From the NCBI GenBank assembly GCA_037385045.1, contig JARRNJ010000007.1, forward strand, positions 7,717 to 71,716: 64,000 nt of DNA, read 5' to 3'. Position 1 is the stretch's first letter, and every line of letters starts with the position of its first letter. The stretch comes from Gammaproteobacteria bacterium (GTDB lineage Bacteria > Pseudomonadota > Gammaproteobacteria > JASBUN01). Below, one piece after another: positions 17,563 through 45,153 of this stretch. The notes under the pieces were generated by a model that had not been told where the DNA came from, made no database searches, and saw only the letters and a list, made by a program, of their open reading frames with translations. The position numbers and the translations under genes were made by a program.

Positions 17563-17573
17563 CAGAGGGCGTT

Positions 17574-19154: not shown

Positions 19155-19166
19155 GAGGACAGCATA

Positions 19167-20912
19167 ATGGCTCGCATGACCCCAAGCGAAGCGTTCGTGG
19201 AGACCCTGGTGGCCCAGGGCGTCAAGGACGTCTTCGGCATCGTCGGCTCCGCGTATATGGATGCGCTGGACCTGTTTCCGGCGGCGGGAATCCGCTTCAT
19301 TCCCACGGTCCACGAGCAAGGTTCGGCGCATATGGCGGACGGCTATTCCCGGGTCAGCGGCAAACAGGGGGTGTGCATCGGCCAGAACGGTCCTGGCATC
19401 ACCAATTTTGTCACCGCCATTGCCGCGGCCTACTGGGCCCATTCGCCAGTGGTGGCCATCACCCCGGAGACCGGCACCATGGGTGTGGGGTTGGGCGGTT
19501 TTCAGGAGGCCGATCAGCTGTCGATCTTCCAGTCCATCACCAAGTATCAGGCCCACGTCAACAACCCGGCGCGGATGGCCGAGATGACGGCCCGGGCCTT
19601 CGACCGGGCGCTGTCCGAGCGGGGCCCGACACAGCTGAATATTCCCCGGGATTACTTTTACGGTGAAATGGACACGGACATTCCCACGCCGGTGCGCATC
19701 GAGGCGCCCATCGGCGGCGCCAAGAGCCTGGAGGAGGCCGCCGACCTGCTGGCCGGTGCCAAATTCCCGGTGATCATGGCCGGCGGCGGCGTCATCAGCG
19801 CCGGCGGCGTCGAGGAAACCAAGCAATTGGCCGAGCGGCTTTCGGCGCCGGTGGTGACCAGCTACCTGCACAACGACGCCTTCCCGGCCAATCATCCGCT
19901 GTGGTGCGGCCCGTTGGGCTATCAGGGCTCCAAGGCCGGCATGAACCTGATCGCCAAAGCCGACGTGGTGCTGGCGCTGGGCACCCGCCTGGGCCCGTTC
20001 GGCACTCTGCCGCAATACGGCATGGACTACTGGCCCAAGTCGGCCAAGATCATCCAGGTGGACGTGGACTACCGCATGGTGGGCCTGGTCAAGTCGGTGG
20101 CCGTTGGCATCTGCGGCGACGCCCGGGGTGTGGCCGTGGCCTTGAGCGAACGCCTCCAGCAGCGCGATCTCGCCTGCCAGCAGAACCGCGAGGAGCGCGA
20201 GAAGGAGATCAAGCGCCAGCAGCAGGCGTGGGAAACCGAGCTCAACGACTGGACCCAGGAGACCGACGAATGGAGCCGTGAAGTCGCGGGCGAGGGTGGC
20301 CGCATGCATCCACGCCAGATGCTGCGGGCGATGGAGCGTGCCATGCCGGAGGACGCCATGGTGTCCACCGACATCGGCAACATCTGCTCGGTGTCCAACA
20401 GCTACCTGCGCTTCAACCGTCCCAACAGCATGTTCGCGGCCATGAGCTTCGGCAACTGCGGCTACGCCTTCCCCACCATCATCGGCGCCAAGGTGGCGGC
20501 GCCCGAGCGCCCGGCGGTGGCGTATGTGGGCGACGGCGCCTGGGCCATGAGCATGGTCGAGATCCTGACCTGCGTGCGCGAGAACATTCCGGTCACCGCG
20601 GTGGTGTTCAATAACCGCCAGTGGGGCGCCGAGAAGAAGAACCAGGTCGATTTCTACTCCCAGCGCTTTTTGGGCAGCAACCTGGAGAACCCGAGCTTCG
20701 CCGGCATTGCCCAGTCCATGGGCGCCCAGGGAGTGACCATCGAGCGCGTCGAGGAGGTGGGTCCGGCGCTGGCCAAGGCCTGCGAGGACCAGAAGCAGGG
20801 CAAGACCACCATCCTGGAAATGCTTGTCACCCGTGAGCTGGGCGAGCCGTTCCGCCGTGACGCGTTGAAGAAGCCGGTGCGCTTGCTTGACAAGTACAAG
20901 GACTTTGTCTGA
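19167..20912 (+). CDS. xsc: sulfoacetaldehyde acetyltransferase (ThDP-dependent)
   Basis: 581 aa. ThDP-enzyme N-terminus (GSAHMADGYSRVSG, GQNGPGITNF), ThDP motif GDGAW..NN, and segments I recall as Xsc-typical (HNDAFPANHPLWCGPLGYQGSKAGM, GTRLGPFGTLPQYGMDYWPK, ELGEPFRRDALKKPV). Confidence 0.8.
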   Translation: MARMTPSEAFVETLVAQGVKDVFGIVGSAYMDALDLFPAAGIRFIPTVHEQGSAHMADGYSRVSGKQGVCIGQNGPGITNFVTAIAAAYWAHSPVVAITPETGTMGVGLGGFQEADQLSIFQSITKYQAHVNNPARMAEMTARAFDRALSERGPTQLNIPRDYFYGEMDTDIPTPVRIEAPIGGAKSLEEAADLLAGAKFPVIMAGGGVISAGGVEETKQLAERLSAPVVTSYLHNDAFPANHPLWCGPLGYQGSKAGMNLIAKADVVLALGTRLGPFGTLPQYGMDYWPKSAKIIQVDVDYRMVGLVKSVAVGICGDARGVAVALSERLQQRDLACQQNREEREKEIKRQQQAWETELNDWTQETDEWSREVAGEGGRMHPRQMLRAMERAMPEDAMVSTDIGNICSVSNSYLRFNRPNSMFAAMSFGNCGYAFPTIIGAKVAAPERPAVAYVGDGAWAMSMVEILTCVRENIPVTAVVFNNRQWGAEKKNQVDFYSQRFLGSNLENPSFAGIAQSMGAQGVTIERVEEVGPALAKACEDQKQGKTTILEMLVTRELGEPFRRDALKKPVRLLDKYKDFV

Positions 20913-20959
20913 GATCGCGGCAACGCGGCGCTCGGCCAACCGCAACGACGGGTAGGAGC

Positions 20960-21400
20960 ATGTTCAATACCATCTTGGTTGCACTGGACGGATCGGATCA
21001 CGCTCGCCATGCGCTGAAGGTGGCGGTCGGACTGGCCGAGCGCTGCGGCGCGAAGCTGCTGCTGTGCCATGCCATCGAACCGCATCCGCTGCGTTCCGAC
21101 CTGAGCCGGATCGCCAGCGAAGCGGCCGAGGAAATGTACGAGCGCATCGGCGGTGAGGTGGCCGAACGTGTTCTCGGCGACGCCGAACAGGCGGCGCGCG
21201 AGGCCGGTATCGCCGAGATTGGCCGCGTGGTTCAGGAGGGCAGCGCGGCGCCGGCGATCGTCGCCGCCGCGGATCACGAGGGAGCCGACCTGATCGTGGT
21301 CGGCACCCGCGGGCTGACCGGACTGCACGAACTGGCCCTGGGCAGCGTCGCTCACAACGTCACTGCCATGGCCCATTGTCCGGTGGTGGTGGTGAAGTGA
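20960..21400 (+). CDS. universal stress protein (UspA family)
   Basis: 146 aa: MFNTILVALDGSDHA..., GADLIVVGTRGLTGLHELALGSVAHNV, HCPVVVVK. Confidence 0.85.
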   Translation: MFNTILVALDGSDHARHALKVAVGLAERCGAKLLLCHAIEPHPLRSDLSRIASEAAEEMYERIGGEVAERVLGDAEQAAREAGIAEIGRVVQEGSAAPAIVAAADHEGADLIVVGTRGLTGLHELALGSVAHNVTAMAHCPVVVVK

Positions 21401-21439
21401 CACCGCGCCGGATACCGGGCACCGGCGCCGGGGGTGCCG

Positions 21440-22639
21440 ATGGCTGACGGGTTGCTGGTCCTCAACGCCGGGTCATCGAGCATCAAGTTCGCCATGTACA
21501 GGCTCGGCGAGCCGGGCACCGATCCGCAGTTGCACCTGCGCGGCAACCTGTCCGGTATCGAAGAACAGCCGCACTTGTTCGCGGCTGACGCCTCCGGACG
21601 GCAGCTGGAGGAGGGCGTGCTGCCGGGGAGCGCGGTGCAAAACCACCAGGATGCACTCGATCATCTTCTCGATTGGCTGGATCGGCAGGCGCATGAAGTG
21701 CACTTGGTTGGCGTCGGGCATCGGGTGCTGCATGGCGGACGCGACTACACCCGGCCGGTAAGAATTACCCCGGATCTGTTGCAGCAGCTGGATCGCTTCT
21801 GCCCACTGGGGCCGGACAACCAGCCCCACAACCTTGCCGGGATCCGTGCCATGGAAGCGGTGGCACCGGACCTGCCCCAAGTGGCGTGTTTTGACACGGC
21901 GTTTCACGCCCGTCAGCCGCCGGTCGCGCGCCTGATGCCGCTGCCGGGCGAATACGCTGACCGCGGCTTCGTCCGTTATGGGTTCCACGGCCTGTCATAT
22001 GACTACATCACCAGCGTACTGCCGTCGTACAACGACGGGCATTTTCCCCAACGGCTGATCATCGCCCACCTGGGCAGCGGCGCCAGCGCCGCCGCTATCA
22101 AGGACGGTGTCGGCATCGCAACGACCATGGGGCTTACCGCCCTGGACGGCCTCATGATGGGCACCCGGTCGGGTTCCCTGGACCCGGGCGCGCTGCTGTA
22201 TCTGATGGAGGAGGACGGACTGGGCGCGCAGGAGCTCAGCGACCTGCTGTACAAGCGCTCCGGTCTGTTGGGCGTTTCCGGCATCAGCGCGGACATGCGG
22301 GTGCTGCTGGACAGTTCCGAACCAGGCGCGCGGCGGGCCGTGGATCTGTTTAGTTATCGTGTTGTGCGCGCGGTCGGTTCGCTGGTCGCCGCACTGCAGG
22401 GCCTCGACGGACTGGTATTCACCGGCGGGATCGGCGAGCACGCCGCCACCATCCGGGCCGGGGTCTGCCACCAGTTGCGTTGGCTGGGGCTGGATCTGGA
22501 CGAGAACGCCAACGACCGCCACGGTCCGGTGATTACGCAGGCCACCAGTGCCGTCAAGGGTTGGGTGATCCCCACCAATGAAGAGCTGGTGATCGCGCGC
22601 CATACCATGGAAGTGTTGGCGCGGGAATCCGCCGGGTAA
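21440..22639 (+). CDS. ackA: acetate kinase
   Basis: LVLNAGSSSIKFAMY, VGHRVLHGG, YGFHGLSY, AHLGSGASAAAI, FTGGIGEH. ATG at 21440; an alternative GTG lies at 21434. Confidence 0.9.
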   Translation: MADGLLVLNAGSSSIKFAMYRLGEPGTDPQLHLRGNLSGIEEQPHLFAADASGRQLEEGVLPGSAVQNHQDALDHLLDWLDRQAHEVHLVGVGHRVLHGGRDYTRPVRITPDLLQQLDRFCPLGPDNQPHNLAGIRAMEAVAPDLPQVACFDTAFHARQPPVARLMPLPGEYADRGFVRYGFHGLSYDYITSVLPSYNDGHFPQRLIIAHLGSGASAAAIKDGVGIATTMGLTALDGLMMGTRSGSLDPGALLYLMEEDGLGAQELSDLLYKRSGLLGVSGISADMRVLLDSSEPGARRAVDLFSYRVVRAVGSLVAALQGLDGLVFTGGIGEHAATIRAGVCHQLRWLGLDLDENANDRHGPVITQATSAVKGWVIPTNEELVIARHTMEVLARESAG

Positions 22640-22730
22640 GGGCGCGCTCAAGGGCGCGCGCATAACATCAAAGCCGAGGCCGGCGGCGTTGTAGCACCGA
22701 TCCCCTCCCATCTCCTGTTTGTGAGGACCG

Positions 22731-23522
22731 ATGAACGCTGTAGTTTCCGAGGTCGGCGCGGCCCTGAGCGGGATCGCGCCCCATGTGCTGGTCGGTGTGA
22801 TACTGGTGCTGGCGCTTGCGGGCCTGATCAAGGGCACCCTGGGTTTCGGGTTGCCGTTGGTGGCGATATCGCTGCTCTCGAACGTCGTGGAGATCCACCT
22901 GGCGTTGGCGTTGGTGACGCTGCCGATCGTGCTCAGCAACCTTTGGCTGGGCCTGCAGGGCGGCGACTTTCCCGGAACGCTGCGCAAGTACTGGATGGTG
23001 GTGCTGGCGGTCGGTGTCGGCATTTTCGCCGGTTCGCGGGTGCTGGTGGGCATCGACAAAAACCTGCTGATGTTCCTCCTGGGCACGGTGATCATCGTTT
23101 TCGCCCTGGCGGAGCAATTCAAGTCGGGCGCCGGGCTGGTGATCCCCCCGCATGCGGAAAGGGGGTGGGGCATCGCCGCGGGCCTCGTGGCCGGACTGAT
23201 GGGCGGCCTGTCCACCGCCTACGGCCCGCCGCTGATCATGTACCTGACCGCGTTGCGGCTGCCGAAGGAGGTCTACATCGGCACCCTGGGCGTGATCTGG
23301 TTCTTTGCGTCGATCTTCCTGGTGGCGGCGTTCTCCAGCGTCAAGATCCTCACGCCGTATACGGCAGTCCTTTCGGGGCTTTCGGTGTTTCCCGTGTTCG
23401 TCGGCATGGCGCTGGGCAAACGGCTGCGCGCGCGCATCGACCAGCACCTGTTTCAGCGTCTGACCCTGATCGCACTGGTGATTCTGGCCCTGAACCTGCT
23501 GCGCCGCGGCTTGTGGGGCTGA
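22731..23522 (+). CDS. TauE/SafE-family anion (sulfite) exporter
   Basis: 263-aa protein with about 7-8 TM segments and the characteristic N-terminus LIKGTLGFGLPLVAISLL plus the repeated half GLMGGLSTAYGPPLIMYL. Confidence 0.8.
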   Translation: MNAVVSEVGAALSGIAPHVLVGVILVLALAGLIKGTLGFGLPLVAISLLSNVVEIHLALALVTLPIVLSNLWLGLQGGDFPGTLRKYWMVVLAVGVGIFAGSRVLVGIDKNLLMFLLGTVIIVFALAEQFKSGAGLVIPPHAERGWGIAAGLVAGLMGGLSTAYGPPLIMYLTALRLPKEVYIGTLGVIWFFASIFLVAAFSSVKILTPYTAVLSGLSVFPVFVGMALGKRLRARIDQHLFQRLTLIALVILALNLLRRGLWG

Positions 23523-23535: not shown

Positions 23536-23961
23536 TCAACTTCGCCGCCCGCCGGCGTAACGCCGGTAGAAATCCGGCGCCGCACGTACGGCAACCGCCA
23601 TGCGCCGGGCCCGCCGGTGCCACTCGACGGCCAGCGGCGGCGGCAGGTGGTCGGCGAGGGTCGCCCGCAACACTGCCAGCCAGGCCTCCACCAGCGAGTC
23701 GTCGACCCCGACGCGCCAATGGGTCAGGCCGATGTCGTATCGGTACCCCTGGTACGGCCGTCCCCCGAGGGCGACCCACCAGAAATGGGTCAGCTTGGCT
23801 GTGTGCGCCGCCCAGTCCCGCACCGTTGCAAAGGGCTGTGACAACTGCGGATGGCGCTGCACACGGTCGTAGAAATCGGCGACCACAACCGCCACCCGGT
23901 GATGACCGATACGCGCGTGGGTGCTGCGCGCACGTAATGTGGATGGCTTTTCGCCCGGCAT
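23536..23961 (-). CDS. group-III truncated haemoglobin-like globin
   Basis: 141 aa. FYDRVQRHPQLSQPF..W..H..KLTHFWWVALGGRPYQG..H..WLAVLRATL follows the pattern of Ctb-type truncated globins. Confidence 0.6.
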   Translation of the reverse strand: MPGEKPSTLRARSTHARIGHHRVAVVVADFYDRVQRHPQLSQPFATVRDWAAHTAKLTHFWWVALGGRPYQGYRYDIGLTHWRVGVDDSLVEAWLAVLRATLADHLPPPLAVEWHRRARRMAVAVRAAPDFYRRYAGGRRS

Positions 23962-28386: not shown

Positions 28387-28869
28387 CTATTGGGCCCCCG
28401 GCTGTTTGCTGCGGGCCGCACGGTCCTCGTCGGCGCCGGGTGAAAGGAGTTCGATCAGTTCGGATCGGCGGTGTCTGAGCAGGTCTTCGACGGTGAATTC
28501 GTCCAGGGCACGCAACAGCGTATTGAGGCCATGCCGTAGCACGCCGCGCAGGGTGCAGACCGGGCGAATGCAGCATTTGCCGCCGTCGGTACGGAAGCAC
28601 TCCACCAGATCCCAGTTCTCCTCCATCCGGCGCGCCACGTCACCGACATAGATTTCTGTGGCGCTGCGCGCCAAGCGAATGCCGCCCCCTTTGCCACGCT
28701 GGGTATGGACGAATCCGGCCCGGCCCAGACGATGGATCACCTTCATGAGGTGGTTGCGCGAGATGTCGTAGGTGGCCGCGATCTCGCTGATGGTGGCCAG
28801 CCGGCCATCATTCAGCCCCAAGTACATCAGTACGCGCAGGGCGTAATCGGTGGACTGGCTGAAGCGCAT
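28387..28869 (-). CDS. Rrf2-family transcriptional regulator (NsrR/IscR-like, Cys-containing)
   Basis: MRFSQSTDYALRVLMYLG..ISEIAATYDISRNHLMKVIHRLGRAGFV..RGKGGGIRLA. Cys cluster candidates at ECFRTDGGKCCIRPVC. Confidence 0.85.
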   Translation of the reverse strand: MRFSQSTDYALRVLMYLGLNDGRLATISEIAATYDISRNHLMKVIHRLGRAGFVHTQRGKGGGIRLARSATEIYVGDVARRMEENWDLVECFRTDGGKCCIRPVCTLRGVLRHGLNTLLRALDEFTVEDLLRHRRSELIELLSPGADEDRAARSKQPGAQ

Positions 28870-28890: not shown

Positions 28891-29826
28891 TCAGTTGAAA
28901 GCGGCCGCGACTGCCTCTCGCCCGGCGTTCTGCCGGTGATCGACGGCAAAGGCGCGCAGTTCCGTTGCCAGCGCCAGGCTGGCAGCGCTGCGGAATCCTC
29001 CGCGTCGCCAGATCAGGCCCACGGAACAGGGCGCAATCGCGCCCTCGAATCGCAGCCGGCGCAAGGTGCCGTGGGTTGGCACCGCCATCGCCGGCAGAAC
29101 CGTAGCAAGATCCGTTTCCCGCGCCACCCCGAGCAGGCTGTGCACCGAGTCCATTTCCACCAGGACCGGGGGCGAGACTCCTTCGGTGCGGATTGCCTGG
29201 TCCAGCATGCGGCGAATCTGAAAGCGGTCCGGAAGCAACGCCAGCGGGACGTTGGCGAGTTCCTTGACGGGCAGCGCGTCGCATCCGGCGAGGGGGTGGT
29301 TCTGTCCGACCACCAGGACCAGTTCCTCGTCGAACAGATGTTCGGTCTCGAAGCGGTTGCCGTTCTGGCTCACCGGGAGAAATGCCACGCCCAGGTCCAG
29401 GCGTGCATCCTGCACCCCGACTTCAATCTCCCAGGCCGCCAGTTCCTGGGCGTGGATCTGCACCCCCGGATGGGCGCGGACCAGTCTGGCGACCACCTTG
29501 GGCAGCAGGCCGACGCTGATCACCTGCAGACTGCCGATGGTCACCGTGCCCTGGACCAGCTGATTGAGGTCCGACAAGGCGACCCGGGCGTCCTGGATCT
29601 GGCGCAGGACGCTGCGGGCGAAAGGCAGCAACGCCGACCCCGCCACGGACAACCGCGCCCCCTTGGTGTGGCGCTCCACCAGGGAAACTCCCAGCTCGGC
29701 TTCCAGCTTGCGCAGTTGCTGCGACAGACCGGGCTGGGTGATGTGCACCTTGGCCGCCGCTCGCCCCATGTGTTGCTCCTCGGCTACGGCGAGCAGGTAA
29801 CGCAACTGGCGCAATTCCATGGGCAC
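28891..29826 (-). CDS. LysR-family transcriptional regulator, divergent from dsrA
   Basis: MELRQLRYLLAVAEEQHMGRAAAKVHITQPGLSQQLRKLEAELGVSLVER, followed by a LysR substrate-binding domain. Confidence 0.9.
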   Translation of the reverse strand: MPMELRQLRYLLAVAEEQHMGRAAAKVHITQPGLSQQLRKLEAELGVSLVERHTKGARLSVAGSALLPFARSVLRQIQDARVALSDLNQLVQGTVTIGSLQVISVGLLPKVVARLVRAHPGVQIHAQELAAWEIEVGVQDARLDLGVAFLPVSQNGNRFETEHLFDEELVLVVGQNHPLAGCDALPVKELANVPLALLPDRFQIRRMLDQAIRTEGVSPPVLVEMDSVHSLLGVARETDLATVLPAMAVPTHGTLRRLRFEGAIAPCSVGLIWRRGGFRSAASLALATELRAFAVDHRQNAGREAVAAAFN

Positions 29827-29917
29827 TCCATAAGCGTTGGTTTAGAAGACGAAACGAAAACAATCCGTTTGTACCCCACGCGGCATATTTCGGCGTGGCT
29901 CATTTGCCGTTAAATAT

Positions 29918-29940
29918 AACATGTACGATGTATACATGTT
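29918..29940. promoter_or_regulatory. perfect 8-bp inverted repeat AACATGTA-N7-TACATGTT, candidate LysR (T-N11-A type) box
   Basis: Arms at 29918-25 and 29933-40. It lies 18 nt upstream of the dsrA ATG, in the AT-rich part of the lysR-dsrA divergent region. Confidence 0.4.
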
Positions 29941-29957
29941 CATAGAGAGGGTCGACT

Positions 29958-31199
29958 ATGGCGAAGAAAGACTACGAGACACCCAACCTGAGCCAGCTCG
30001 AGGATGGTCCCTGGCCGAGCTTTGTCCAAGGACTCAAGCACTTAGCGGACAAGAACGAAATGATGAACGATCTGGTGGGCCAGCTTGAGCATTCCTATCA
30101 GACCAAGAAGGGCTATTGGAAGGGTGGCACCGTTAGCGTATTCGGCTATGGCGGCGGGATCATTCCCCGATTTTCGGAGGTGGCCGACCGGTTTCCGGCC
30201 TCCCGCGAGTTCCACACCCTGCGGATCATGCCCCCCGCGGGCATGCACTACAACACCGATATCCTGCGTCAGCTGGCTGACATCTGGGACCGGCACGGGT
30301 CCGGCCTGATCGCCTTCCACGGGCAAAGCGGCGACATCATGTTCCAGGGTTGCAGTACCGACGAAGTCCAGAAGGCCTGGGACGAGATCAACGAGATCGG
30401 TTTCGATCTCGGCGGTGCCGGCCCCTCGGTGCGCACTTCCATGTCATGCGTCGGCTCGGCCCGCTGCGAGCACTCCTGCTTCAACGAGCAGCGTGCGCAC
30501 CGGGAGGTGATGAACTCCTTTACCGACGACCTGCACCGTCCGGCGCTGCCATACAAATTCAAGTTCAAGTTTTCCGGTTGTCCGAACGACTGCATGAACT
30601 CCATCCAGCGGGCCGATATGGCCGTCATTGGAACCTGGCGCGACGACATTCAGGTCAAGCAGGACCAGGTGGCCGCATTCATCCAGGAAAAGGGGCGCAA
30701 TTACGTCATCGACAATGTCATCACTCGCTGTCCGACACGCTGCATTTCGCTCAAAGATGACGACACCCTGGAGATCGACAATCATAACTGCGTGCGTTGC
30801 ATGCACTGCATCAATGTGATGACCAAAGCGCTGTCGCCCGGCAAGGATCGCGGCGTGACCGTGCTGGTGGGAGGCAAGCGTACGTTGAAGATCGGTGATC
30901 TGTTCGGCTCGGTCATCATACCGTTTATGAAGCTCGAGTCCGAGGAGGACCATGAGCGACTGGTCGAGCTGGCGTCTGAGATCATCGATTTCTGGGCGGA
31001 AAACGGTCTCGAGCACGAGCGTTGCGGCGAAATGATCGAGCGGATCGGGCTGCAGAACTTTCTCGAGGGGATCGGTGTCGACGTGGATCCAGCGATGGTG
31101 TCCCAGCCGCGCACGAATTCCTTCGTGCGCATGGACATGTGGGAGGAAGAGGCGGAGAAGTGGCGGCAGCGTCAAAGTGCGAAGGCCGGTGGCGGTTGA
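29958..31199 (+). CDS. dsrA: dissimilatory sulfite reductase alpha subunit
   Basis: 413 aa. GPWPSFV, GYWKGGTVSVFGYGGGIIPRFSE, sirohaem/FeS Cys motifs SCVGSARCE and KFSGCPNDC, and ferredoxin insert CPTRCI..CVRCMHCINVM. The C-terminus ENGLEHERCGEMIERIGL is very similar to my recollection of Allochromatium-type DsrA. Confidence 0.9.
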   Translation: MAKKDYETPNLSQLEDGPWPSFVQGLKHLADKNEMMNDLVGQLEHSYQTKKGYWKGGTVSVFGYGGGIIPRFSEVADRFPASREFHTLRIMPPAGMHYNTDILRQLADIWDRHGSGLIAFHGQSGDIMFQGCSTDEVQKAWDEINEIGFDLGGAGPSVRTSMSCVGSARCEHSCFNEQRAHREVMNSFTDDLHRPALPYKFKFKFSGCPNDCMNSIQRADMAVIGTWRDDIQVKQDQVAAFIQEKGRNYVIDNVITRCPTRCISLKDDDTLEIDNHNCVRCMHCINVMTKALSPGKDRGVTVLVGGKRTLKIGDLFGSVIIPFMKLESEEDHERLVELASEIIDFWAENGLEHERCGEMIERIGLQNFLEGIGVDVDPAMVSQPRTNSFVRMDMWEEEAEKWRQRQSAKAGGG

Positions 31200-31247
31200 G
31201 CGCGGCGGTCGTCGGCTCGATTATGGCAGCGAACAGGAGACGTATTT

Positions 31248-32321
31248 ATGAGTACTGAGTTGCGTGCGCCGATCGAAAGCGGCGTCCCCGATCCATTTCA
31301 ATTCATGCACCCGGTGATGCAGCGTAATTTCGGCCAGTGGGCTTGGCACGACCGTCCGCGCCCCGGTGTGCTCCATCATGTATCGGAGCAGGGTGAGGCG
31401 ATCTGGACCGTGCGGGCAGGAACCTGCCGGCAGATGGATACCGACACGATCCGCAAACTGTGTCAGATTGCCGACCAACACGCCGACGGCTTCGTCCGGT
31501 TTACCATCCGCAGCAACATCGAGTTCATGGTGGCCGACGAGGCCAAGGTTGACCCGCTCATCGCCCGGCTCGAACAAGAGGGCTTCCCGGTAGGCGGGAC
31601 CGGCAATTCGGTCTCCACCGTGGCCCATACGCAAGGGTGGCTGCATTGCGACATCCCGGCCAGCGACGCCTCCGGGGTGGTGAAATCCCTCATGGACGAG
31701 CTCTACCATGAATTTACCCATGAGGAGATGCCCAACCGGGTGCGGTTGTCCACTTCCTGCTGCCAGATCAACTGCGGCGGACAAGCCGACATCGCCATCA
31801 ACGTGCAGCACACCAAGCCACCGAAGATCAACCATGACCTGGTGGCGAACGTCTGCGAGCGGCCTTCGGTGGTCGCGCGGTGCCCGGTCGCCGCGATACG
31901 GCCGGCTCTGGTCAACGGTAAGCCGTCTCTCGAAGTGGACGAGAAGAAATGTATCTGCTGCGGCGCCTGCTATCCGCCCTGTCCGCCCATGCAGATCAAT
32001 GACCCCGAGAACTCCAAACTGGCGATCTGGGTGGGAGGCAAGAACTCCAATGCCCGCAGCCGCCCCGCCTACCAGAAGCTGGTGGTCGCCGGCCTGCCCA
32101 ACAATCCGCCGCGTTGGCCGGAAGCCGTCCAGGCGGTTCGTACCATCCTGGATTGCTACAAGAAGGATGCGCACGAGTGGGAGCGTTTGGGCGAGTGGAT
32201 CGATCGGATCGGCTGGTCGCGGTTTTTCGAGCTTACGGGTTTCCCGTTCACGCGTTTTCATATCGACAATTGGCGTGCACACAAGCACGGCTTGAACACG
32301 TCGACGCATATCCGGTTCTGA
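31248..32321 (+). CDS. dsrB: dissimilatory sulfite reductase beta subunit
   Basis: 357 aa. HTQGWLHCDIPASDASG, STSCCQINCGG, ferredoxin domain CPVAAI..CICCGACYPPCP, and the typical tail WRAHKHGLNTSTHIRF. Confidence 0.9.
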   Translation: MSTELRAPIESGVPDPFQFMHPVMQRNFGQWAWHDRPRPGVLHHVSEQGEAIWTVRAGTCRQMDTDTIRKLCQIADQHADGFVRFTIRSNIEFMVADEAKVDPLIARLEQEGFPVGGTGNSVSTVAHTQGWLHCDIPASDASGVVKSLMDELYHEFTHEEMPNRVRLSTSCCQINCGGQADIAINVQHTKPPKINHDLVANVCERPSVVARCPVAAIRPALVNGKPSLEVDEKKCICCGACYPPCPPMQINDPENSKLAIWVGGKNSNARSRPAYQKLVVAGLPNNPPRWPEAVQAVRTILDCYKKDAHEWERLGEWIDRIGWSRFFELTGFPFTRFHIDNWRAHKHGLNTSTHIRF

Positions 32322-32419
32322 GACTCCATAGTGGAGCTGTCAGGGGGTCGGACGACATGTTCATGCTCCTTCATGTCGCCCGGCGCTCCTGACCCTTCTA
32401 ACACAGGCAACATTGCGGG

Positions 32420-33073
32420 GTGACCCTGATGCTCGAGGCGGAGGGCGCCTGTCGGGACCTGTCAGAGGAAGATTTCGTCTACGCCATGAGGGAGATGAGT
32501 ACATATATTGACATTACCGCACAGGACTTGCTGGCGCTGTTTCAACTGGCCTGCAAGTACGCGGACATCCGCCATGCCGAGCGGGTACGAGTAGGCAATG
32601 TCATGACCCGGGACGTCGTCATGATCAGGCCGGATACCTCTCTCGCCGAAGCGGCAAGGAAGCTCCTTCGTCACGGAATAGACGGAATGCCGGTAGTGGA
32701 CTCGGAGCGACGGCCGGTCGGCATGCTTACCGAAGCGGACCTGCTGGCAAACGTCGGCCTGCCGTGCCGCCACCCGAGTTGCCGTCCGTGGCGGAAGCTT
32801 GCCGGGATATTCGCCGCCGAGGTTAGGCGCATGGACGGGCTCGCGGGAACTGTGCGCGAAGCCATGTGGGCCGAACCCGTTACCATCTCCGATACCGCGA
32901 GGCTGCAGGAATTGATCGACTTTATGAAGAAAATGCACGTCAAGCGCGTGATCGTTACTGATGACGAAGGTCGCGTTTCCGGAATCGTGACCCGTTCCAA
33001 TATCGTGCGGGCGTTCGTGGATGCACACCCGGACCCCGGCGACCATGATGTCGACGGATGGCCCGAATGGTGA
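32420..33073 (+). CDS. CBS-pair domain protein
   Basis: Two CBS motifs (VGNVMTRDVVMIRPDTSLAEAARKLLRHGIDGMPVVD; VREAMWAEPVTISDTARLQELIDFMKKMHVKRVIVTD). GTG start at 32420, or ATG at 32429. Confidence 0.8.
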   Translation: MTLMLEAEGACRDLSEEDFVYAMREMSTYIDITAQDLLALFQLACKYADIRHAERVRVGNVMTRDVVMIRPDTSLAEAARKLLRHGIDGMPVVDSERRPVGMLTEADLLANVGLPCRHPSCRPWRKLAGIFAAEVRRMDGLAGTVREAMWAEPVTISDTARLQELIDFMKKMHVKRVIVTDDEGRVSGIVTRSNIVRAFVDAHPDPGDHDVDGWPEW

Positions 33074-33252
33074 GCGAGAACGTAACACAACGAACGAGCA
33101 GGATTGGCGCCTGTCCAAGCCGCCGACCATGACCGGCAACACCAGACTATTTAATGCGACCGCGAATGCGGAAGTCCGCGGCGCAATACACAGGGCGCGC
33201 GCCATGCGCCGTTATTCCGAAGGTCCGAATCTGAACGGCCAGGAGGTAAGCA

Positions 33253-33609
33253 GTGAACGCACGAGTTGAAGATTTCTCCGGTATGGTGCTCAGCGGGGTC
33301 GACGTCTGCCAGGAAGGTTACTTGGTGGATCCGGACGAGTGGACTCCGCAAGTGGCGGTGGAATTCGCACAAGGCTACGGCTTGGAACTCACCGATCAGC
33401 ATTGGGATATTCTCGAGTTCATGCGCCGCTACTACGAAGAGCACAAAGTCGCGGCGGACGCCCGGTTCGTGATCAAGTATCTGGCCGACGATCTGGGCAA
33501 GGGCAGGGCAGCACGAGTCGCGTTGTATCAGTTATTTCCATACGGCTACATGCAGCAGGCCTGCAAGATCGCCGGCATGCGCCGGCCGCGGGCCTGGAGT
33601 ACCGGTTGA
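33253..33609 (+). CDS. DsrC/TusE-family protein lacking the penultimate (CysA) cysteine
   Basis: 118 aa. ..GYLVDPDEWTPQVAVEFAQ..LTDQHWDILEFMRRYYEE..LFPYGYMQQACKIAGMRRPRAWSTG*. The family fold and the CysB position (ACKIAG) are present, but the canonical ..PKPTGCV end is replaced. Confidence 0.85.
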   Translation: MNARVEDFSGMVLSGVDVCQEGYLVDPDEWTPQVAVEFAQGYGLELTDQHWDILEFMRRYYEEHKVAADARFVIKYLADDLGKGRAARVALYQLFPYGYMQQACKIAGMRRPRAWSTG

Positions 33610-34015
33610 CAACGACTCCCATCCATCGCCAAAGCGCGAGGTGTTTTGCTCTGGCGGTAGCCCCGCGGGGACCGGCCGCGGTTGCGCCAGCGGTCGATCG
33701 GCATGTTCAGGCCCGGTTAGCCAATCAATGGTACCCGGCTGAAAATGCTTCGGCCGCGTGTGAGGCCAAAGCGGGCTGATACCCCGGTCAACCGCTTGGG
33801 ACTGTCGAGTCAGGATTTTTTCCGAAACACCTGCGCTAAATCAATAGCGGTTCGGGTCAAGCATGGATTGGCTGCCAAATTAGAGGTATATAGGTAACCT
33901 GATAAAAGCAGGGAACGATTGTAGCTTCATCTTGGAGCGTGCCGGGGAGGCTGGCGGGATTTGTTCGGGGCCGTTGGGTTTGGCGGCTGTTCCGATGGCG
34001 ATAGGTCGAGGTAGC

Positions 34016-34729
34016 ATGGCGGTCGAACCGTCTTTCATCCAGACACAGCATACCTGCGAGCACTGTGTGCTTCGGCAGCTGTTCGTGCGTTCTGGCCTCG
34101 CCGGTGAGCAGATTGCCGCCCTGGGCAACGCCACCATTCGCTGCCATGGCCCTTATCGGCGGGGACAGCATATTTTCCGCGCCGGCGATCAAGTGAAATC
34201 CCTCTACGTGATCACCAGTGGGGCGGTCAAGACCGAAATCACTGCGCCCAGTGGCAGGCAGGTCACAGGCTTTTTCCTGACTGGGGAGTCGTTTGCCGCC
34301 GAGGCCATCGGCCGCGATGTCCTGCCGTTCGATGCGATTGCCCTGCGCAAGACCACGGTATGCGAACTGTCCCGTACCCACCTGGAAGAACTATGTGCGG
34401 AAAACGAGCGGTTGCTGCACGAGGTGCTGCGATTCCTGTCCGAACACATTCGTACCTCCAGCCGCCAATGGATCTCGATGCGCCACCTCAATTCGGAGCA
34501 GCGCGTCATACGCTTCCTTAGGGACTTGCGCCGGCGCATCGCGCTCCGCCAGGGGCATGAGCCGGGCGAAATTCGCCTGCCCATGACCAAGGACGATATT
34601 TCCTGCTTTCTCTCCCTGGCCCCCGAGACCCTGAGCCGGACCCTGACGAAGCTTGCAAAGGGGGGCGTAATCCGCAACACAATGAAAAGCGTCGAACTGC
34701 TCGACCGCGAGGCGATTGAGACTCACTGA
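34016..34729 (+). CDS. Crp/Fnr-family transcriptional regulator
   Basis: cNMP-like beta-roll (FRAGDQVKSLYVITSGAVKT) and C-terminal HTH (MTKDDISCFLSLAPETLSRTLTKLAKGGVI). ATG at 34016. Confidence 0.85.
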   Translation: MAVEPSFIQTQHTCEHCVLRQLFVRSGLAGEQIAALGNATIRCHGPYRRGQHIFRAGDQVKSLYVITSGAVKTEITAPSGRQVTGFFLTGESFAAEAIGRDVLPFDAIALRKTTVCELSRTHLEELCAENERLLHEVLRFLSEHIRTSSRQWISMRHLNSEQRVIRFLRDLRRRIALRQGHEPGEIRLPMTKDDISCFLSLAPETLSRTLTKLAKGGVIRNTMKSVELLDREAIETH

Positions 34730-35062: not shown

Positions 35063-37033
35063 ATGCGAGTCGCCATGTTAGGACCACCCAGACCTCGTCC
35101 GGTGCGATTGCTCCTGATCAATCCGCGGTTTCCGGAAAGCTTCTGGAGTTTCCGCTGGGCGCTTGAAAACATCCTGCCCCACAAACGGGCAATCAATCCA
35201 CCGCTTGGTTTGGCTACCCTGGCGGCGCTATGTCCGCCGGCCTGGCAGGTGGAAATCATCGACGAGAATATCGAACCCGTCCCGTTGGATCCACAAGCGG
35301 ATATCGTCGGCATCTGCGGCATGGCCGCGCAGTTTCCCCGTCAGCGGGAGTTGATCGAGTACTACCGCCGTCGGGGCCATTACGTTGTGGCGGGAGGCAG
35401 TTTCGCCTCGCTGTGCCCGGAGCGTTACTCCGGCTTGGCCGACACCGTCGTTGCCGGCGAGGCCGAATACATTTGGCCCGCGTTCTGCCGCGAGTTTGAA
35501 CACGGAGCACCCAAAACTCTCTACCAGGAAAACGGCGTGGTCAACCTGGAGGACTCGCCCACGCCGCGCTTCGACCTGTTGAAACTGAACCGATATAACT
35601 CGGTGAGCATGCAATTCTCGCGCGGTTGCCCGTACCGATGCGAATTCTGCGATATCATCGTCATGTTCGGGCGTCGGCCGCGCACCAAGCGTGTCGAGCA
35701 GATCGGCCGCGAACTCGATGTGCTTCGTGCTCACGGGGTCCACGACGTGTTTTTCGTGGACGACAATCTGATCGGCAACAAGAAGCTCGCGAAAGCGCTG
35801 CTGCGCTACATTGATGAGTACCAACAGCGGCACGACTACGTCTTCCGATTCGGCACGGAGGCTTCGATCAACGTGGCCGATGATCCAGCGCTACTGCGGT
35901 TGTTGACGGCCGCGAACTTCACGTGGGTATTCATCGGCATCGAGTCACCCGACGAAGGCAGCTTGCAAGAAGCCAATAAGGATCAGAATACCGGGCGCGA
36001 CCTGCTAACAGCAGTGCGCACCCTCTATCAGAACGGCATCGACGTCCTGGCGGGCTTTATCATCGGTTTTGACAACGATAATTTGGATTCCTTTAGCGCG
36101 CAGTACCGTTTTATCACCGATTCGGGCATTCAGGTCTCAATGGTAGGTCTGCTCACAGCGTTACCGCGTACGCCGCTATATGGGCGTCTGCAACGCGAAG
36201 GCCGGCTAATCGAAGGCGCAGCGCACGGTGACAACACCAAGCCGGACACCAATATTATTCCGAAGCGTATGGGCCGCGAGGAAATGGTTCGGGCTTATCA
36301 GGCGTTGTACCAGCGTTTGTTCACGGACGATGGTATTGCCCGGCGCATCTGCAACAAAGCCGGCTATCTGAAAAATCCCGCCTGCGCACAACGATACGGG
36401 CTGCGCGAAGGTCTGGGCAACGTGCGCAGGCTAATCATGCGCGGATTGCTTGCCGGCGGACCGAAACGGGTGTTTCACTTCGTCCGCACGTTGGTAGCCT
36501 GCCCGCCTCGCGTCTGGCAACAGGTTGTTCAGGACTGGATCGTGGGATTGGCCATGCGCGATTATATCAGGCGCCACTTCATGACCAGTTTGGCTCGGGA
36601 ACGACATCTGACGCAGCGCACGGGCGCGTGGATACGCAAACTATTCGCGACCGAGATACGTCATGGCACGGTCGAAATCGACACCCGTTTGGATGAAGGC
36701 GGTGCGGCCCTGCAGATCATGCTACGCGGGTATACCCGTCGCGCATTCTGCATGCGCACGGTGCGCCGTTTGAACAAACTGCTGCGTCGATCGGCTACCA
36801 CCGTAACATTGCACATCGATTCGCTCGCAGCGAATCAAACGCGGCAACTGAGGCGTCTGCTCAAGCGCTTGGCTCCCTACGGCGATCGTGTCTCGATCTG
36901 GATCGGCGAGCGCGCGCGGCCGCTCGCCCCGACAGTCGACTCTTCGGTGTTTCACCTGCTGCTGACCGTTGATGGTCCCGCGTGTCCGCGCCCGCGTGCC
37001 GGCGATGTGCCTGTCGACGCGACGAGGAGCTGA
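35063..37033 (+). CDS. B12-binding-domain radical SAM protein with long C-terminal extension (DUF4070-like)
   Basis: N-terminal cobalamin-binding-like region (LLINPRFPESFWSF..PLGLATLAA..DIVGICGMA), the radical SAM CxxxCxxC motif (SRGCPYRCEFCD), and a C-terminal extension of about 250 aa. Confidence 0.85.
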   Translation: MRVAMLGPPRPRPVRLLLINPRFPESFWSFRWALENILPHKRAINPPLGLATLAALCPPAWQVEIIDENIEPVPLDPQADIVGICGMAAQFPRQRELIEYYRRRGHYVVAGGSFASLCPERYSGLADTVVAGEAEYIWPAFCREFEHGAPKTLYQENGVVNLEDSPTPRFDLLKLNRYNSVSMQFSRGCPYRCEFCDIIVMFGRRPRTKRVEQIGRELDVLRAHGVHDVFFVDDNLIGNKKLAKALLRYIDEYQQRHDYVFRFGTEASINVADDPALLRLLTAANFTWVFIGIESPDEGSLQEANKDQNTGRDLLTAVRTLYQNGIDVLAGFIIGFDNDNLDSFSAQYRFITDSGIQVSMVGLLTALPRTPLYGRLQREGRLIEGAAHGDNTKPDTNIIPKRMGREEMVRAYQALYQRLFTDDGIARRICNKAGYLKNPACAQRYGLREGLGNVRRLIMRGLLAGGPKRVFHFVRTLVACPPRVWQQVVQDWIVGLAMRDYIRRHFMTSLARERHLTQRTGAWIRKLFATEIRHGTVEIDTRLDEGGAALQIMLRGYTRRAFCMRTVRRLNKLLRRSATTVTLHIDSLAANQTRQLRRLLKRLAPYGDRVSIWIGERARPLAPTVDSSVFHLLLTVDGPACPRPRAGDVPVDATRS

Positions 37034-40028: not shown

Positions 40029-41282
40029 TCAGCCGAGAAGGTCTGCGTAGGAGAAGAACCGCAGCATGTCGCCGTGAGCGACTTGGCGCCTGGCGGGGAT
40101 CTCGACCAGGCCCACCGTTCGCACGACGCCTGTCAATGCATCAGAGCTCTGGCCGGCGCAGGGGTCTGCGTATAGCGTGTCGCCTTGATGGCGCAGCCGG
40201 GCGCGGAGAAATTCGCAGCGTTGTTGCGGATGTTGCCGTGTGAATCCGGCGCTTACCGGCCACCAACGTGCCTCCCATGCGGCGCGTCCAGCCAACCGTA
40301 ACAGATACGGTCGAGAAAACATGAGGAATGTGACAAGGGCCGAGACCGGGTTGCCAGGCAAACCGAAAAAGGGTACACCGCCGACCGCGCCGAATGCCAA
40401 CGGCTTGCCGGGTTTGATCGCGACCCGCCAGAGGTCCAGGGTGCCTGCGGACAACACGGCCGATCGCACATGGTCTTCCTCGCCTACGGATACGCCTCCC
40501 GTCGTCAGGATGACGTCAGCTCCGGCGGCGGCTGCCTTCAAGGCAGCGCCGGTCGCCTCCAAACAATCGTCGACTGTGCCGAGGTCGACCGCATCGAGCC
40601 CCAATGCCCGAACCAGACCGAGCAGGACGGCCCGGTTGCTGTTGTAGATCTGGCCCGGAAGCAGATCCGCGCCCCAATCGGCGAGCTCGTCACCGGTAAA
40701 AAATACGGCGACCCGCGGCCGCCGGTACACCGAGACAGTCGCCAGACCGACCGAGGCGGCAAGCCCTGCGGCCTGCGGTGTGAGCACCTCTCCCCGAGCG
40801 AGGATCTTGTTGCCGGCGCCGACGTCGTGGCCGCGCGGACGAACGTTCTCGCCGGGCTCGACGCGGCGAGAAACGTGGATGGCGGCGGCATCGACGCGAC
40901 ACTCTTCCTGGCGCACCACGGAATCCGCCCCGGGCGGCAGCGGTGCACCAGTAAAGACCCGCGCCGCGGTGCCGGGCGCCAGGGCCAGGCCGATCTGCCC
41001 CGCGGGGATGCGTTGCGAAACACTCAGGAGGCGCTCATCGCGGGTGTCACAACTGCGCACCGCATATCCGTCCATGGCGCTGTTGTCGAAGCCGGGCACG
41101 TCGATGACGGCATGATGGTCTGCGGCCAGCACACGCCCAAACGCCGCGCTCAACGGCAGTCGCTCGGTTTCGCGCACTGGCTGCACGTCAGCCATGATCC
41201 GGATCAAGGCCTCATCGACCGTCAGCAGCCCGGCGCCCGCGCACGGGTCCGCTGCGCGAACCGATTGCGTGGAGGCGTTCAT
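40029..41282 (-). CDS. moeA: molybdopterin molybdenumtransferase MoeA
   Basis: 417 aa. LLTVDEALIRI, FDNSAMDGYAV, TGGVSVGEEDHV, KPGKPLAFG, GLPGNPVSALVTF. Confidence 0.9.
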   Translation of the reverse strand: MNASTQSVRAADPCAGAGLLTVDEALIRIMADVQPVRETERLPLSAAFGRVLAADHHAVIDVPGFDNSAMDGYAVRSCDTRDERLLSVSQRIPAGQIGLALAPGTAARVFTGAPLPPGADSVVRQEECRVDAAAIHVSRRVEPGENVRPRGHDVGAGNKILARGEVLTPQAAGLAASVGLATVSVYRRPRVAVFFTGDELADWGADLLPGQIYNSNRAVLLGLVRALGLDAVDLGTVDDCLEATGAALKAAAAGADVILTTGGVSVGEEDHVRSAVLSAGTLDLWRVAIKPGKPLAFGAVGGVPFFGLPGNPVSALVTFLMFSRPYLLRLAGRAAWEARWWPVSAGFTRQHPQQRCEFLRARLRHQGDTLYADPCAGQSSDALTGVVRTVGLVEIPARRQVAHGDMLRFFSYADLLG

Positions 41283-41824
41283 GACGATTCCCGCAACCGG
41301 GGAATCAGCTCAATCAGATTGCAGGGCCGGTGCCTTACATCCAATTGTGGTGAGATGACCTTTTCCCAGGCGGTCCGGCATGCACCGGTCGAGCCCGGCA
41401 AGCAGAAAACGTAGGTTCCGTTGGCGACGCCGGCCACCGCACGCGATGCGATGGTGGAGGTTCCGATCTCCTGGTACGAAACCCAGCGGAACAGTTCGCC
41501 GAAGCCTTCAATCTCCTTGTCAAACAATGGCCGAACGGCCTCGGGGGTTCCGTCCCGTCCGGTCAGGCCCGTGCCGCCGTTGGTGACTACGACATCCACG
41601 TCCGGATCGGCGATCCAATGGGAGACCCATTTTCGGATGGCATAGATATCGTCGGGCACGATGCGCTTCTCCGAAAACTGATGTCCCGCTTCCAGCAACG
41701 CGTCCACCAGCACCCGCCCGGAGGTATCGGTTTGCTCGTTGCGTGAGTCGGTTATGGTCATCACGGCGATGCGAACCGGCACGAACTCTGGCGTGGCACT
41801 TTTCAGAACAGATTGACTACCCAT
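41279..41824 (-). CDS. moaB: molybdenum cofactor biosynthesis protein B
   Basis: [57 protein letters not shown]. Confidence 0.85.
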
Positions 41825-41914
41825 GAGCTACTGATCTCCAACAGAGAGGGACGGACGGCGCCCAAGTGGCGCCGCCCTGCCAATGCCCGGTCCAGGGGTT
41901 CCGGGACCAACTAC

Positions 41915-44392: not shown

Positions 44393-44405
44393 GCTTTGGC
44401 TCCCC

Positions 44406-45127: not shown

Positions 45128-45153
45128 GCATCGCCGGCTACACAACGCCCCAT

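Follow-up and report, generated by a model that had tools for sequence, protein, structure and literature searches.

In Allochromatium vinosum, the canonical reverse Dsr pathway is encoded by the gene cluster dsrABEFHCMKLJOPNRS. Additional dsrAB genes are known to lie apart from such clusters. Sulfurifustis variabilis (SVA_0258-0259) and Sulfuricaulis limicola (SCL_0256-0257) carry dsrAB outside the dsrABEFHCMKLJOPNR cluster (PMC5024460), and the products of both Sulfurifustis copies were found in the proteome of thiosulfate-grown cells (PMC6397845). Two Thioalkalivibrio (Tv.) genomes contain multiple dsrAB copies (PMC6382920), and Thiohalobacter FOKN1 has DsrA1B1 in addition to a canonical dsr cluster (PMC6504805). 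Müller et al. placed the DsrAB of Tv. nitratireducens apart from those of other Thioalkalivibrio and suggested xenologous replacement (PMC4351914). In cultured Tv. nitratireducens, Tv. denitrificans, Sulfuricaulis limicola and Sulfurifustis, a canonical dsr cluster is located elsewhere in the genome (PMC5024460, PMC6382920, PMC6504805). That sulfur oxidisers carry extra dsrAB copies and many dsrC paralogues has been noted for about twenty years with no explanation. Here we analyse a 64-kb stretch of DNA from a Gammaproteobacteria bacterium (contig JARRNJ010000007.1, positions 7,717 to 71,716; hereafter the window), which carries a stand-alone dsrAB pair followed by genes for a CBS-pair protein and a DsrC-like protein without CysA, the cysteine needed for sulfur transfer. 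Sequence comparison assigns this pair to a widespread paralogue lineage of sulfur oxidisers, whose recurrent neighbours and predicted regulation point to nitrogen oxides.

Like the ‘aberrant’ DsrAB of Tv. nitratireducens and the second copies described above, the window pair is encoded without dsrEFHCMKLJOPN, and for Tv. nitratireducens, Tv. denitrificans and a Sulfuricaulis metagenome-assembled genome (MAG) we show below that the copies form one clade with it. The resemblance to Tv. nitratireducens extends to the neighbourhood, where a CBS gene, a LysR gene and a DsrC variant ending in PRAWSTG, together with an HPP gene, all lie within 6 kb. With the canonical reverse Dsr system of A. vinosum, the window pair shares the oxidative type, identical cofactor and substrate residues, a DsrA identity of 66-73% and the same kinds of hosts. 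In contrast to that system, it has no adjoining dsrEFH, two-cysteine dsrC, dsrMKJOP, dsrL or dsrN, is accompanied by its own regulators and has a partner DsrC lacking CysA. The second dsrAB of Moorella thermoacetica, with dsrC and dsrN, is likewise an extra copy apart from the main cluster with its own DsrC-type gene; that copy, however, is deep-branching reductive or archaeal-like, whereas the window copy is nested within the oxidative type.

Two regulator genes on the minus strand, encoding an NsrR-like Rrf2-family Fe-S regulator (28387-28869; PF02082, 121 bits) and a LysR-type regulator with HTH_1 and LysR_substrate domains (28891-29826), are separated by a 131-bp control region from four divergent plus-strand genes with short gaps between them. 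These are dsrA for the alpha subunit (29958-31199; TIGR02064, 582 bits against a cut-off of 393), dsrB for the beta subunit (31248-32321; TIGR02066, 510 bits against 342), the gene of a stand-alone CBS-pair protein (32420-33073; two copies of PF00571) and that of the CysA-less DsrC-family paralogue (33253-33609; PF04358, 105 bits; TIGR03342, 92 against 53.5). The resulting order is rrf2-lysR, divergent from dsrA-dsrB-CBS-dsrC-like. By tblastn, no DsrEFH, DsrL, canonical DsrC, HPP, NnrS or Nar was found in the window, and annotation with Pfam and NCBIfam models detected no DsrMKJOP, DsrN or DsrD among its approximately 58 open reading frames (ORFs). A remnant of a canonical dsrC is likewise missing, both from the gap that separates the CBS gene from the DsrC variant and from the remainder of the window. 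The whole window gave no match to Rfam, and a promoter and terminator scan of 28.0-35.2 kb returned counts no higher than in shuffles and so does not inform the operon ends.

A sequence-only reading of this locus had described the same dsrA-dsrB-CBS-dsrC-like arrangement, the lack of the usual dsr partners in the window and a regulated unit, and on these points it holds: all genes lie where it put them, with family scores in agreement, and the module recurs with its regulators in other genomes. It had named as regulators the LysR protein and a plus-strand Crp/Fnr-family protein (33932-34729; cNMP_binding and HTH_Crp_2 domains; Fnr subfamily model 128 bits, below cut-off), both of which are present, and it had overlooked the Rrf2 gene, which is a conserved part of the module. 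Membership of the Crp/Fnr gene in the module is doubtful, and this gene does not adjoin the module in L081, L085 or other relatives (L numbers denote loci fetched for comparison). As read from the sequence, the Crp/Fnr N-terminus has a CxxC, a Phe at the position expected for the third FNR cluster cysteine, and the internal cysteine (TTVCEL). Directly 3' of it lies a gene for a 656-aa B12-binding radical SAM protein with DUF4070 (35063-37033, plus strand), which is not conserved beside the module in relatives.

The module is maintained across genomes at 62-89% protein identity. In L085 (MFD01721.bin.1.106), Rrf2 (63% identity) and LysR (61%) are divergent from dsrA (86%), dsrB (89%) and CBS (49%), followed by a canonical two-cysteine dsrC, then by the PRAWSTG variant and NnrS. 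L081 (BWSM_72) shows LysR divergent from dsrAB-CBS-variant-DUF2249, without an Rrf2 gene. The CBS gene, the DsrC variant or both also stand beside dsrAB in L001, L084, L165, L166, L259, L263, L267, L275, L294, L309, L314 and L318. Two Logan contigs, from independent assemblies, bear the same locus as the window at 99.7% identity, and within the window its ORFs are intact with a high codon bias for G or C at third positions (GC3).

Both subunits retain the cofactor and substrate residues. DsrA has the sirohaem/Fe-S motif C164x5C170 and C208x3C212 and the ferredoxin cysteines C258, C262, C278, C281 and C284 within CPTRC and CVRCMHC. DsrB has C134, C171, C172 and C176 and the ferredoxin motif C235-C245, CICCGACYPPCP. 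Moreover, R89, R159, K200 and K202 align with the substrate-binding basic residues of Archaeoglobus fulgidus. The intact sirohaem/Fe-S and ferredoxin motifs noted earlier are thereby confirmed by alignment and extended to the substrate residues. By both equivalog scores, the cofactor motifs and the substrate residues, DsrAB is a predicted dissimilatory-type sulfite reductase.

The window DsrA is 45-46% identical to two solved reductive enzymes, compared with 66-73% to dsrEFH-linked copies and 68-85% to other stand-alone copies by alignment. Its best named database matches are from sulfur oxidisers, with Tv. nitratireducens and Tv. denitrificans at 78%. We built neighbour-joining trees on corrected p-distances, in which deep nodes are weak (38-40%), and rooted one of them on the reductive sequences 2XSJ_A and 3MM5_A. 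In the rooted tree, 86 proteobacterial oxidative-type sequences including the window form a clade with 100% support against these two. The earlier suggestion that this DsrA is of the oxidative type was therefore right.

We then compared 81 loci with full-length DsrA and DsrB, fetched around DsrA relatives and including the window. dsrEFH follows dsrB in 66 of them and demonstrably does not in 11, while four end too early to tell. On concatenated DsrAB, the stand-alone copies make up one clan with a core of seven at 100% bootstrap: the window, L081, L085, L084, L001, Tv. nitratireducens (L165) and Tv. denitrificans (L166). Extending the clan to the Candidatus (Ca.) Muproteobacteria, Thiohalobacteraceae and Sulfuricaulis copies gives 60% bootstrap, and adding L066 gives 89%. 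With eight further copies, found via the CBS gene, the rooted tree contains 19 stand-alone sequences, which form a monophyletic group within the oxidative type (65% overall, 93% for a 15-sequence core and 100% for a 12-sequence core). Among the 120 best database matches, which are representatives of 90% clusters, 114 fall inside the stand-alone clade, and no dsrEFH-linked sequence does. Three further long contigs bear the stand-alone dsrAB arrangement. The tree includes Tv. nitratireducens, Tv. denitrificans and Thiohalobacter (L263) directly and Sulfuricaulis via a MAG (L004), whose copy probably corresponds to the second dsrAB published for that genus. It does not contain the Sulfurifustis, S. 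limicola and FOKN1 genes named above. As judged from these sequences, the window copy is a member of a widespread monophyletic stand-alone dsrAB paralogue lineage of sulfur-oxidising Gamma- and Betaproteobacteria. The lineage itself is already on record, with no function proposed beyond redundancy or xenologous replacement.

One MAG, JBAYTM01 (Thiohalobacteraceae SO_2016_LW2_99), holds two stand-alone dsrAB (L003 and L294), one in each subclade, whose DsrA proteins are 74% and 79% identical to that of the window; CBS, NnrS, a perfect NsrR box and the DsrC variant accompany the second. Unlike the window locus, the Acidiferrobacterales-type subclade (L002-L004) has neither CBS nor the DsrC variant nearby.

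We looked for active-site changes that would distinguish the lineage. With strict thresholds, no clade-specific substitution was found, and relaxed thresholds gave nine, all mild and for the most part conservative. Just one of them, Q172H in CEHSC, lies close to a cofactor: all 19 stand-alone copies have His172, as do 113 of the 120 best database matches, versus one of 66 canonical copies, which mostly have Gln. Because the clade-specific substitutions are so mild, the sequences offer no evidence for a changed substrate. In Tv. denitrificans (L166), a gene for a DsrL-like NAD(P)H oxidoreductase directly follows dsrB (PRK12771, 734 bits).

A conserved partner of the window dsrAB is the DsrC-like protein. 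Its C-terminus reads QQACKIAGMRRPRAWSTG / CKIAGMRRPRAWSTG up to the stop codon, so that CysB is kept and CysA is absent. Like other DsrC/TusE/RspA family members, it preserves CysB and FPYG...CKIAG, yet it ends in MRRPRAWSTG instead of LPKPTGCV. Its best match in the Protein Data Bank (PDB) is A. vinosum DsrC (1YX3, E 3e-24). A scan of species-representative genomes returned at least 578 relatives, and about 75 of the best 80 carry the PRAWSTG ending or a one-residue variant of it. They define a family ending in FPYGY(M/V)xQ(A/T)CKIAGM(R/K)RPRAWSTG, in which LPKPTGCV is replaced and the arm is two residues longer; carriers include Thiobacillus (T.) thioparus, T. denitrificans, Sulfuricella, Sideroxyarcus and Ca. 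Thiodiazotropha. Since the same ending is conserved in relatives, a frameshift, a sequencing error or decay does not account for it. The altered C-terminus noticed in the sequence-only reading is real, and it marks a conserved paralogue family and not a degenerate copy. By sequence, the protein is a member of its own conserved subfamily, neither DsrC sensu stricto nor TusE.

This subfamily mostly occurs away from dsrAB, which is nearby in only eight of the 85 loci surveyed around the DsrC variant. Two contexts recur. In about 16 loci, narH-narJ-narI, a flavoprotein gene resembling sulfide:quinone reductase (SQR), the variant and NnrS stand together; in about 17, the variant and HPP are divergent from LysR, which may be joined by Rrf2. 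An Rrf2 gene adjoins the variant in 11 loci, and a divergent LysR gene is found in 23 of the 85. In T. denitrificans, a dsrC copy lies next to nar, a gene order that is directly visible in a MAG of this species (L143). The flavoprotein, of 515 aa, is encoded between narI and the PRAWSTG DsrC in L131 (8377-9924) and about 20 other loci from Thiobacillus-type genomes, and is distant kin of type III sulfide:quinone reductase (92 bits, far below cut-off). In L043, the SQR-like gene adjoins the DsrC variant upstream of a canonical dsr operon. Another DsrC-like subfamily without CysA, whose members end in CKIAGMRKP(L/R)KLMLD(I/V) at the stop codon, was seen in L282, L287, L289, L295 (end at 7328) and L110. 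Its genes have a divergent LysR on one side and HPP-CBS on the other, and some genomes carry it alongside the PRAWSTG type.

The CBS protein leads to the same set of neighbours. Orthologues that accompany other stand-alone dsrAB copies share 36-49% identity with the window protein. A 428-aa HPP-CBS fusion that follows the DsrC variant in L113 matches it over the C-terminal half, at 30% identity (E 7e-17). A conserved N-terminal linker helix plus the CBS pair is common to the window protein and the cytoplasmic half of HPP-CBS proteins. The HPP family includes nitrite transporters of cyanobacteria and plastids. In Tv. nitratireducens, CBS, HPP, a hypothetical gene and the variant form one operon. 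Across 80 loci with CBS orthologues, we counted adjacent HPP in 48, divergent LysR in 37, DsrC-like genes in 36 (of the PRAWSTG or the MRKP(L/R)KLMLD(I/V) type), NnrS in 16, stand-alone dsrAB in 12 and Rrf2 in 10. The common cassette is LysR divergent from (DsrC-like)-HPP-CBS(-NnrS); in the window, dsrAB takes the place held there by (DsrC-like)-HPP, and an HPP domain is neither fused nor adjacent. LysR, the CBS protein, the CysA-less DsrC and Rrf2 are thus a recurrent cassette around HPP and NnrS, often after narGHJI and the SQR-like flavoprotein.

Genes for nitrogen-oxide metabolism also appear near stand-alone dsrAB itself. In Tv. nitratireducens (L165), a NarXL-like pair, HPP, NnrS and hemerythrin are nearby, and in Tv. 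denitrificans (L166), two NirK-like copper oxidases, cytochromes c and Rrf2. Genes for NosR-like and cd1 NirS proteins lie near dsrAB in L331, hemerythrin in L084, and NnrS in L085, L267 and L294. In our searches, no paper linked dsrAB to a CBS domain and dsrC in this sense, and none linked dsrA to NsrR or nnrS. As far as this search goes, the module of CBS, CysA-less DsrC, LysR and Rrf2 and the nitrogen-oxide context of stand-alone dsrAB are undescribed.

The predicted regulation is consistent with this context. As read from its sequence, the window Rrf2 protein has Asp8 and three clustered cysteines in VECFRTDGGKCCIRPVC, like the Fe-S ligands of NsrR, and its best PDB match is NsrR (5N07, E 5e-16, versus 3e-7 for IscR). 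The LysR protein has its best NCBIfam match in CynR (226 bits, below the cut-off of that model). It is 61-62% identical to the proteins in the same position in L081 and L085; the divergent LysR proteins elsewhere in the cassette loci are about 30% identical to it (37 of 80 CBS loci, 23 of 85 DsrC-variant loci). A sequence scan of the control region revealed a perfect 8-7-8 palindrome, AACATGTA-N7-TACATGTT, at 29918-29940, 18-40 nt before the dsrA start, which is unique in the window (0.02 expected). It contains a candidate NsrR-type box, ATGTAC-N5-ATACAT (29921-29937, 37 nt before dsrA), with one mismatch to the NsrR consensus gATGyAT-N5-ATrCATc of Rodionov et al. (PMC1274295). This is the only window site within one mismatch of ATGYAT-N5-ATRCAT. 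In the two closest relatives, L081 and L085, ATGTA half-sites lie at the same distance from dsrA as in the window, and an upstream LysR-like block, TTATCCC-N5-GGAATATTC, is common to all three.

A search of 3.6 Mb of fetched loci yielded seven perfect NsrR boxes, five of them upstream of Rrf2 genes or dsrA. Those upstream of Rrf2 genes are in L087, L097, L161 and L164. The fifth, in L294, is located between NnrS and the stand-alone dsrA, 84 nt upstream of the latter. Boxes with one mismatch occur in Thiohalobacter (L263), within the dsrAB/LysR control region, and in L270, upstream of LysR. In L087 (8287-11172), the box stands between Rrf2 and an operon that encodes a membrane protein and the DsrC variant; this operon consists of a 169-aa hydrophobic ORF, the DsrC variant and a 247-aa hydrophobic ORF. 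Downstream of the L087 Rrf2 gene is a candidate rubrerythrin ORF. FNR/DNR boxes with at most one mismatch precede five of 28 stand-alone dsrA genes (two perfect; Tv. denitrificans is among the five), versus four of 66 canonical ones (none perfect). The window dsrA promoter has no FNR/DNR box, and all 22 window matches with at most two mismatches are elsewhere. Like the NsrR regulon (hmp, ytfE/dnrN, nnrS, hcp), the lineage combines an Rrf2 protein closest to NsrR, boxes before Rrf2 genes and dsrA, and frequent NnrS; it differs in that DsrAB and DsrC-like genes are unmentioned as targets in PMC1274295, and its window Rrf2 protein scores below the NsrR equivalog cut-off.

Taken together, the explanation that we favour, tentatively and with a little less than even confidence, is that a sulfur oxidiser here encodes a sirohaem DsrAB of auxiliary role, controlled by NsrR-like and LysR proteins and used when nitrogen oxides are present; its substrate and partners are inferred. 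The NsrR-like Rrf2 protein would repress the operon and LysR would activate it. Under this combination of repression and activation, expression would occur with nitrite or nitric oxide (NO), under denitrifying or micro-oxic conditions. DsrAB would perform the usual sirohaem chemistry between sulfite and sulfane sulfur, as an isoenzyme auxiliary to the canonical reverse DsrAB, and would use DsrC, DsrL or DsrMK-type partners encoded elsewhere. The CysA-less DsrC would form no DsrC trisulfide or persulfide and would more likely be a gating or regulatory subunit; the CBS protein may be an adenylate or ligand sensor, both proteins being non-catalytic partners. We chose the auxiliary isoenzyme because the regulation and the cassette point to nitrogen oxides while the features of sulfur chemistry are retained. 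That sulfur chemistry is probably kept is suggested by the conserved active site, the canonical DsrC in L085, the DsrL-like protein in L166 and the SQR-like flavoprotein.

Several points weigh against this explanation. The NsrR assignment builds on a best-match similarity below the cut-off and a box with one mismatch, with binding predicted: the best NCBIfam match of the Rrf2 protein is NsrR (NF008240) at 127.8 bits against a cut-off of 182, with RirA about equal, and 0.23 one-mismatch boxes are expected per window, at least one being found in 21 of 100 shuffles. The palindrome could instead be a LysR site. Regulation of the operon and operator binding at the window locus are predictions, and the canonical dsr cluster, the denitrification genes and the sulfur-oxidising lifestyle of the window organism are assumed by analogy with its relatives. 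No nitrogen-oxide gene was found near dsrAB in L330, L332, L001, L002 and L004. The neighbourhood counts are phylogenetically non-independent, many DsrC-variant loci coming from related Thiobacillus genomes. According to its published description, Thiohalobacter HRh1 has one dsrAB, located ‘in the vicinity’ of dsrMKJOP, and lacks dsrEFH. In the corresponding locus (L263; Thiohalobacter thiocyanaticus Hrh1, NZ_QZMU01000001.1 647399-663956), we found a stand-alone dsrAB with LysR, the DsrC variant and CBS, and no dsrMKJOP within the 16.5 kb fetched around dsrAB. If this stand-alone copy is the only dsrAB of HRh1, the lineage can be a main enzyme and not an auxiliary one.

The same nitrogen-oxide context might alternatively indicate a new function, in which DsrAB, the CysA-less DsrC and the CBS protein would make up a cytoplasmic sirohaem reductase of the NsrR regulon that detoxifies nitrite, hydroxylamine or NO and is not a sulfur enzyme. 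Sirohaem sulfite reductases also reduce nitrite and hydroxylamine, the recurrent neighbours (HPP, NnrS, narGHJI, NirS/NirK, hemerythrin and Rrf2, with NsrR boxes) would suit such an enzyme, the partner DsrC is without the cysteine for sulfur transfer, and His172 lies beside an Fe-S cysteine motif in all 19 clade members where canonical copies mostly have Gln. Apart from this residue, however, the active site is indistinguishable from that of canonical reverse DsrAB. The hosts are sulfur oxidisers, and proteins of sulfur metabolism accompany the lineage, namely the canonical DsrC in L085, the DsrL-like protein in L166 and the SQR-like flavoprotein beside the variant. We consider this function unlikely. 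A broader claim, to which we also give a low probability, would be that this entire lineage of oxidative-type DsrAB, which spans at least 114 clusters at 90% identity, has been drawn into the network that serves denitrification and nitrosative stress. Under NsrR, and together with the CysA-less DsrC and an anion-transport cassette of HPP and CBS, it would be either a sirohaem reductase for nitrite, hydroxylamine or NO or an NO-tolerant replacement that sustains sulfur oxidation during denitrification. If true, surveys with dsrAB as marker count a gene set at the junction of the sulfur and nitrogen cycles, and the long-unexplained multiplicity of dsrC paralogues in sulfur oxidisers gains a function.

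A simpler account would make the window pair an ordinary redundant isoenzyme of reverse DsrAB that works with canonical DsrC, DsrEFH and DsrMKJOP encoded elsewhere and has no link to nitrogen oxides, the regulators serving general anaerobic or stress control. The second dsrAB beside a full dsr cluster in Sulfurifustis and Sulfuricaulis, the presence of both Sulfurifustis products in thiosulfate-grown cells, the very few clade-specific substitutions and the loci without nitrogen-oxide neighbours would all fit it. Yet the lineage is old, monophyletic and widespread and has conserved partners of its own (CBS, CysA-less DsrC, LysR and Rrf2), and NsrR and FNR/DNR boxes are enriched at its promoters, which makes plain redundancy rather unlikely.

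The sequence-only reading had proposed that the module is a compact sulfite-handling unit coupled to a sulfonate pathway, with the logic of Bilophila-type respiration. Upstream of the module lies a sulfoacetate island (12935-23522, plus strand) encoding TctA and TctC-like proteins of a tripartite tricarboxylate transporter (TTT), SauS (773 bits), a SauT-like acyl-CoA ligase, Xsc (973 bits), Usp, an acetate kinase instead of Pta and the sulfite exporter TauE. It is preceded by the gene of its GntR regulator (11816-12550, minus strand). The island ends 6.4 kb and Xsc 9 kb before dsrA, and the stretch from island to module holds a globin-like gene and an operon for RND efflux, both in the opposite orientation on the minus strand. 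In such a scheme, the module would handle or reduce the sulfite that Xsc releases from sulfoacetate or taurine. A complete SauS-SauT-Xsc-AckA-TauE island nearby, an acetate kinase replacing Pta in keeping with energy conservation from acetyl phosphate, and the DsrC-variant locus L133, with SauS and SauT about 9 kb away, can be cited for it. As in Bilophila, a sulfite-releasing sulfonate pathway and dsrAB occur in the same region. Bilophila-type respiration, however, uses reductive DsrAB (with Xsc or IslA), a two-cysteine DsrC and DsrMKJOP, whereas the window DsrAB is oxidative, with DsrA at 45-46% to reductive enzymes, its DsrC lacks CysA, and neither a two-cysteine DsrC nor DsrMK is in the window.

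The survey of xsc beside related modules went against the proposal as well: no Xsc, SauS or TauE was detected within 8-10 kb of about 27 other stand-alone dsrAB or of the 80 CBS-orthologue loci. Cultured relatives, moreover, have a canonical dsr cluster elsewhere (PMC5024460, PMC6382920, PMC6504805), which the sequence-only reading had itself listed among the grounds for giving up its proposal. Because linkage to Xsc is not conserved in other genomes, a separate regulator and sulfite exporter belong to the island, and genes on the opposite strand intervene, sulfonate coupling is not supported by the comparison and we consider it improbable for the window organism; the adjacency of Xsc and dsrAB appears incidental. 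Proximity to Xsc does not turn the module into a unit for sulfonate respiration of the Bilophila kind. The absence of the usual operon partners might suggest a silent copy or one in decay, but this is very improbable given the intact ORFs, all motifs, high GC3, 99.7% identity in independent assemblies and preservation of the module at 62-89% protein identity.

For the auxiliary isoenzyme that we favour, the association of NsrR-type operators, NnrS, HPP and narGHJI with the lineage offers a concrete hypothesis for cultured strains such as Tv. nitratireducens, Tv. denitrificans, Thiohalobacter thiocyanaticus and Sulfurifustis variabilis. A large dsrAB paralogue lineage with its own partners and regulation would also be miscounted as ordinary sulfur oxidation where dsrAB is used as the standard marker for sulfur-oxidising and sulfite-reducing microbes.

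Along the window, genes of fatty-acid beta-oxidation are followed by the sulfoacetate island, the globin-like gene and RND pair, the module, an ECF sigma factor, an arsenite oxidase island, arsR/arsP and MacAB-TolC type efflux genes. The globin-like gene is a 141-aa ORF between TauE and the RND pump (23536-23961, minus strand) with weak Protoglobin and Bac_globin matches. One Logan contig, from SRR21285564 (L168), has 125 extra bases inside the membrane-fusion-protein gene, at window position 27999/28000; this gene encodes 372 aa there compared with 289 aa in the window, whose copy may be truncated. The arsenite oxidase island (40029-50021) contains aioA for the large subunit (41915-44392, minus strand; Rieske 3Fe-4S domain) and aioB for the Rieske subunit (44406-45131, minus strand), with molybdenum-cofactor genes at their flanks, namely moeA, a mog/moaB-like gene with a MoCF_biosynth domain and a moaA-like gene. 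The flanking genes also include aioXSR, for a periplasmic binding protein resembling AioX, a histidine kinase and a sigma-54 response regulator. Genes for a thioredoxin-like protein, an ArsP permease and ArsR lie at 50.2-52.1 kb. L168 diverges fully from the window after 39077, where the place of the arsenite oxidase island is taken by genes for a methyltransferase, one DsrE-family protein (122 aa) and an AraC regulator.

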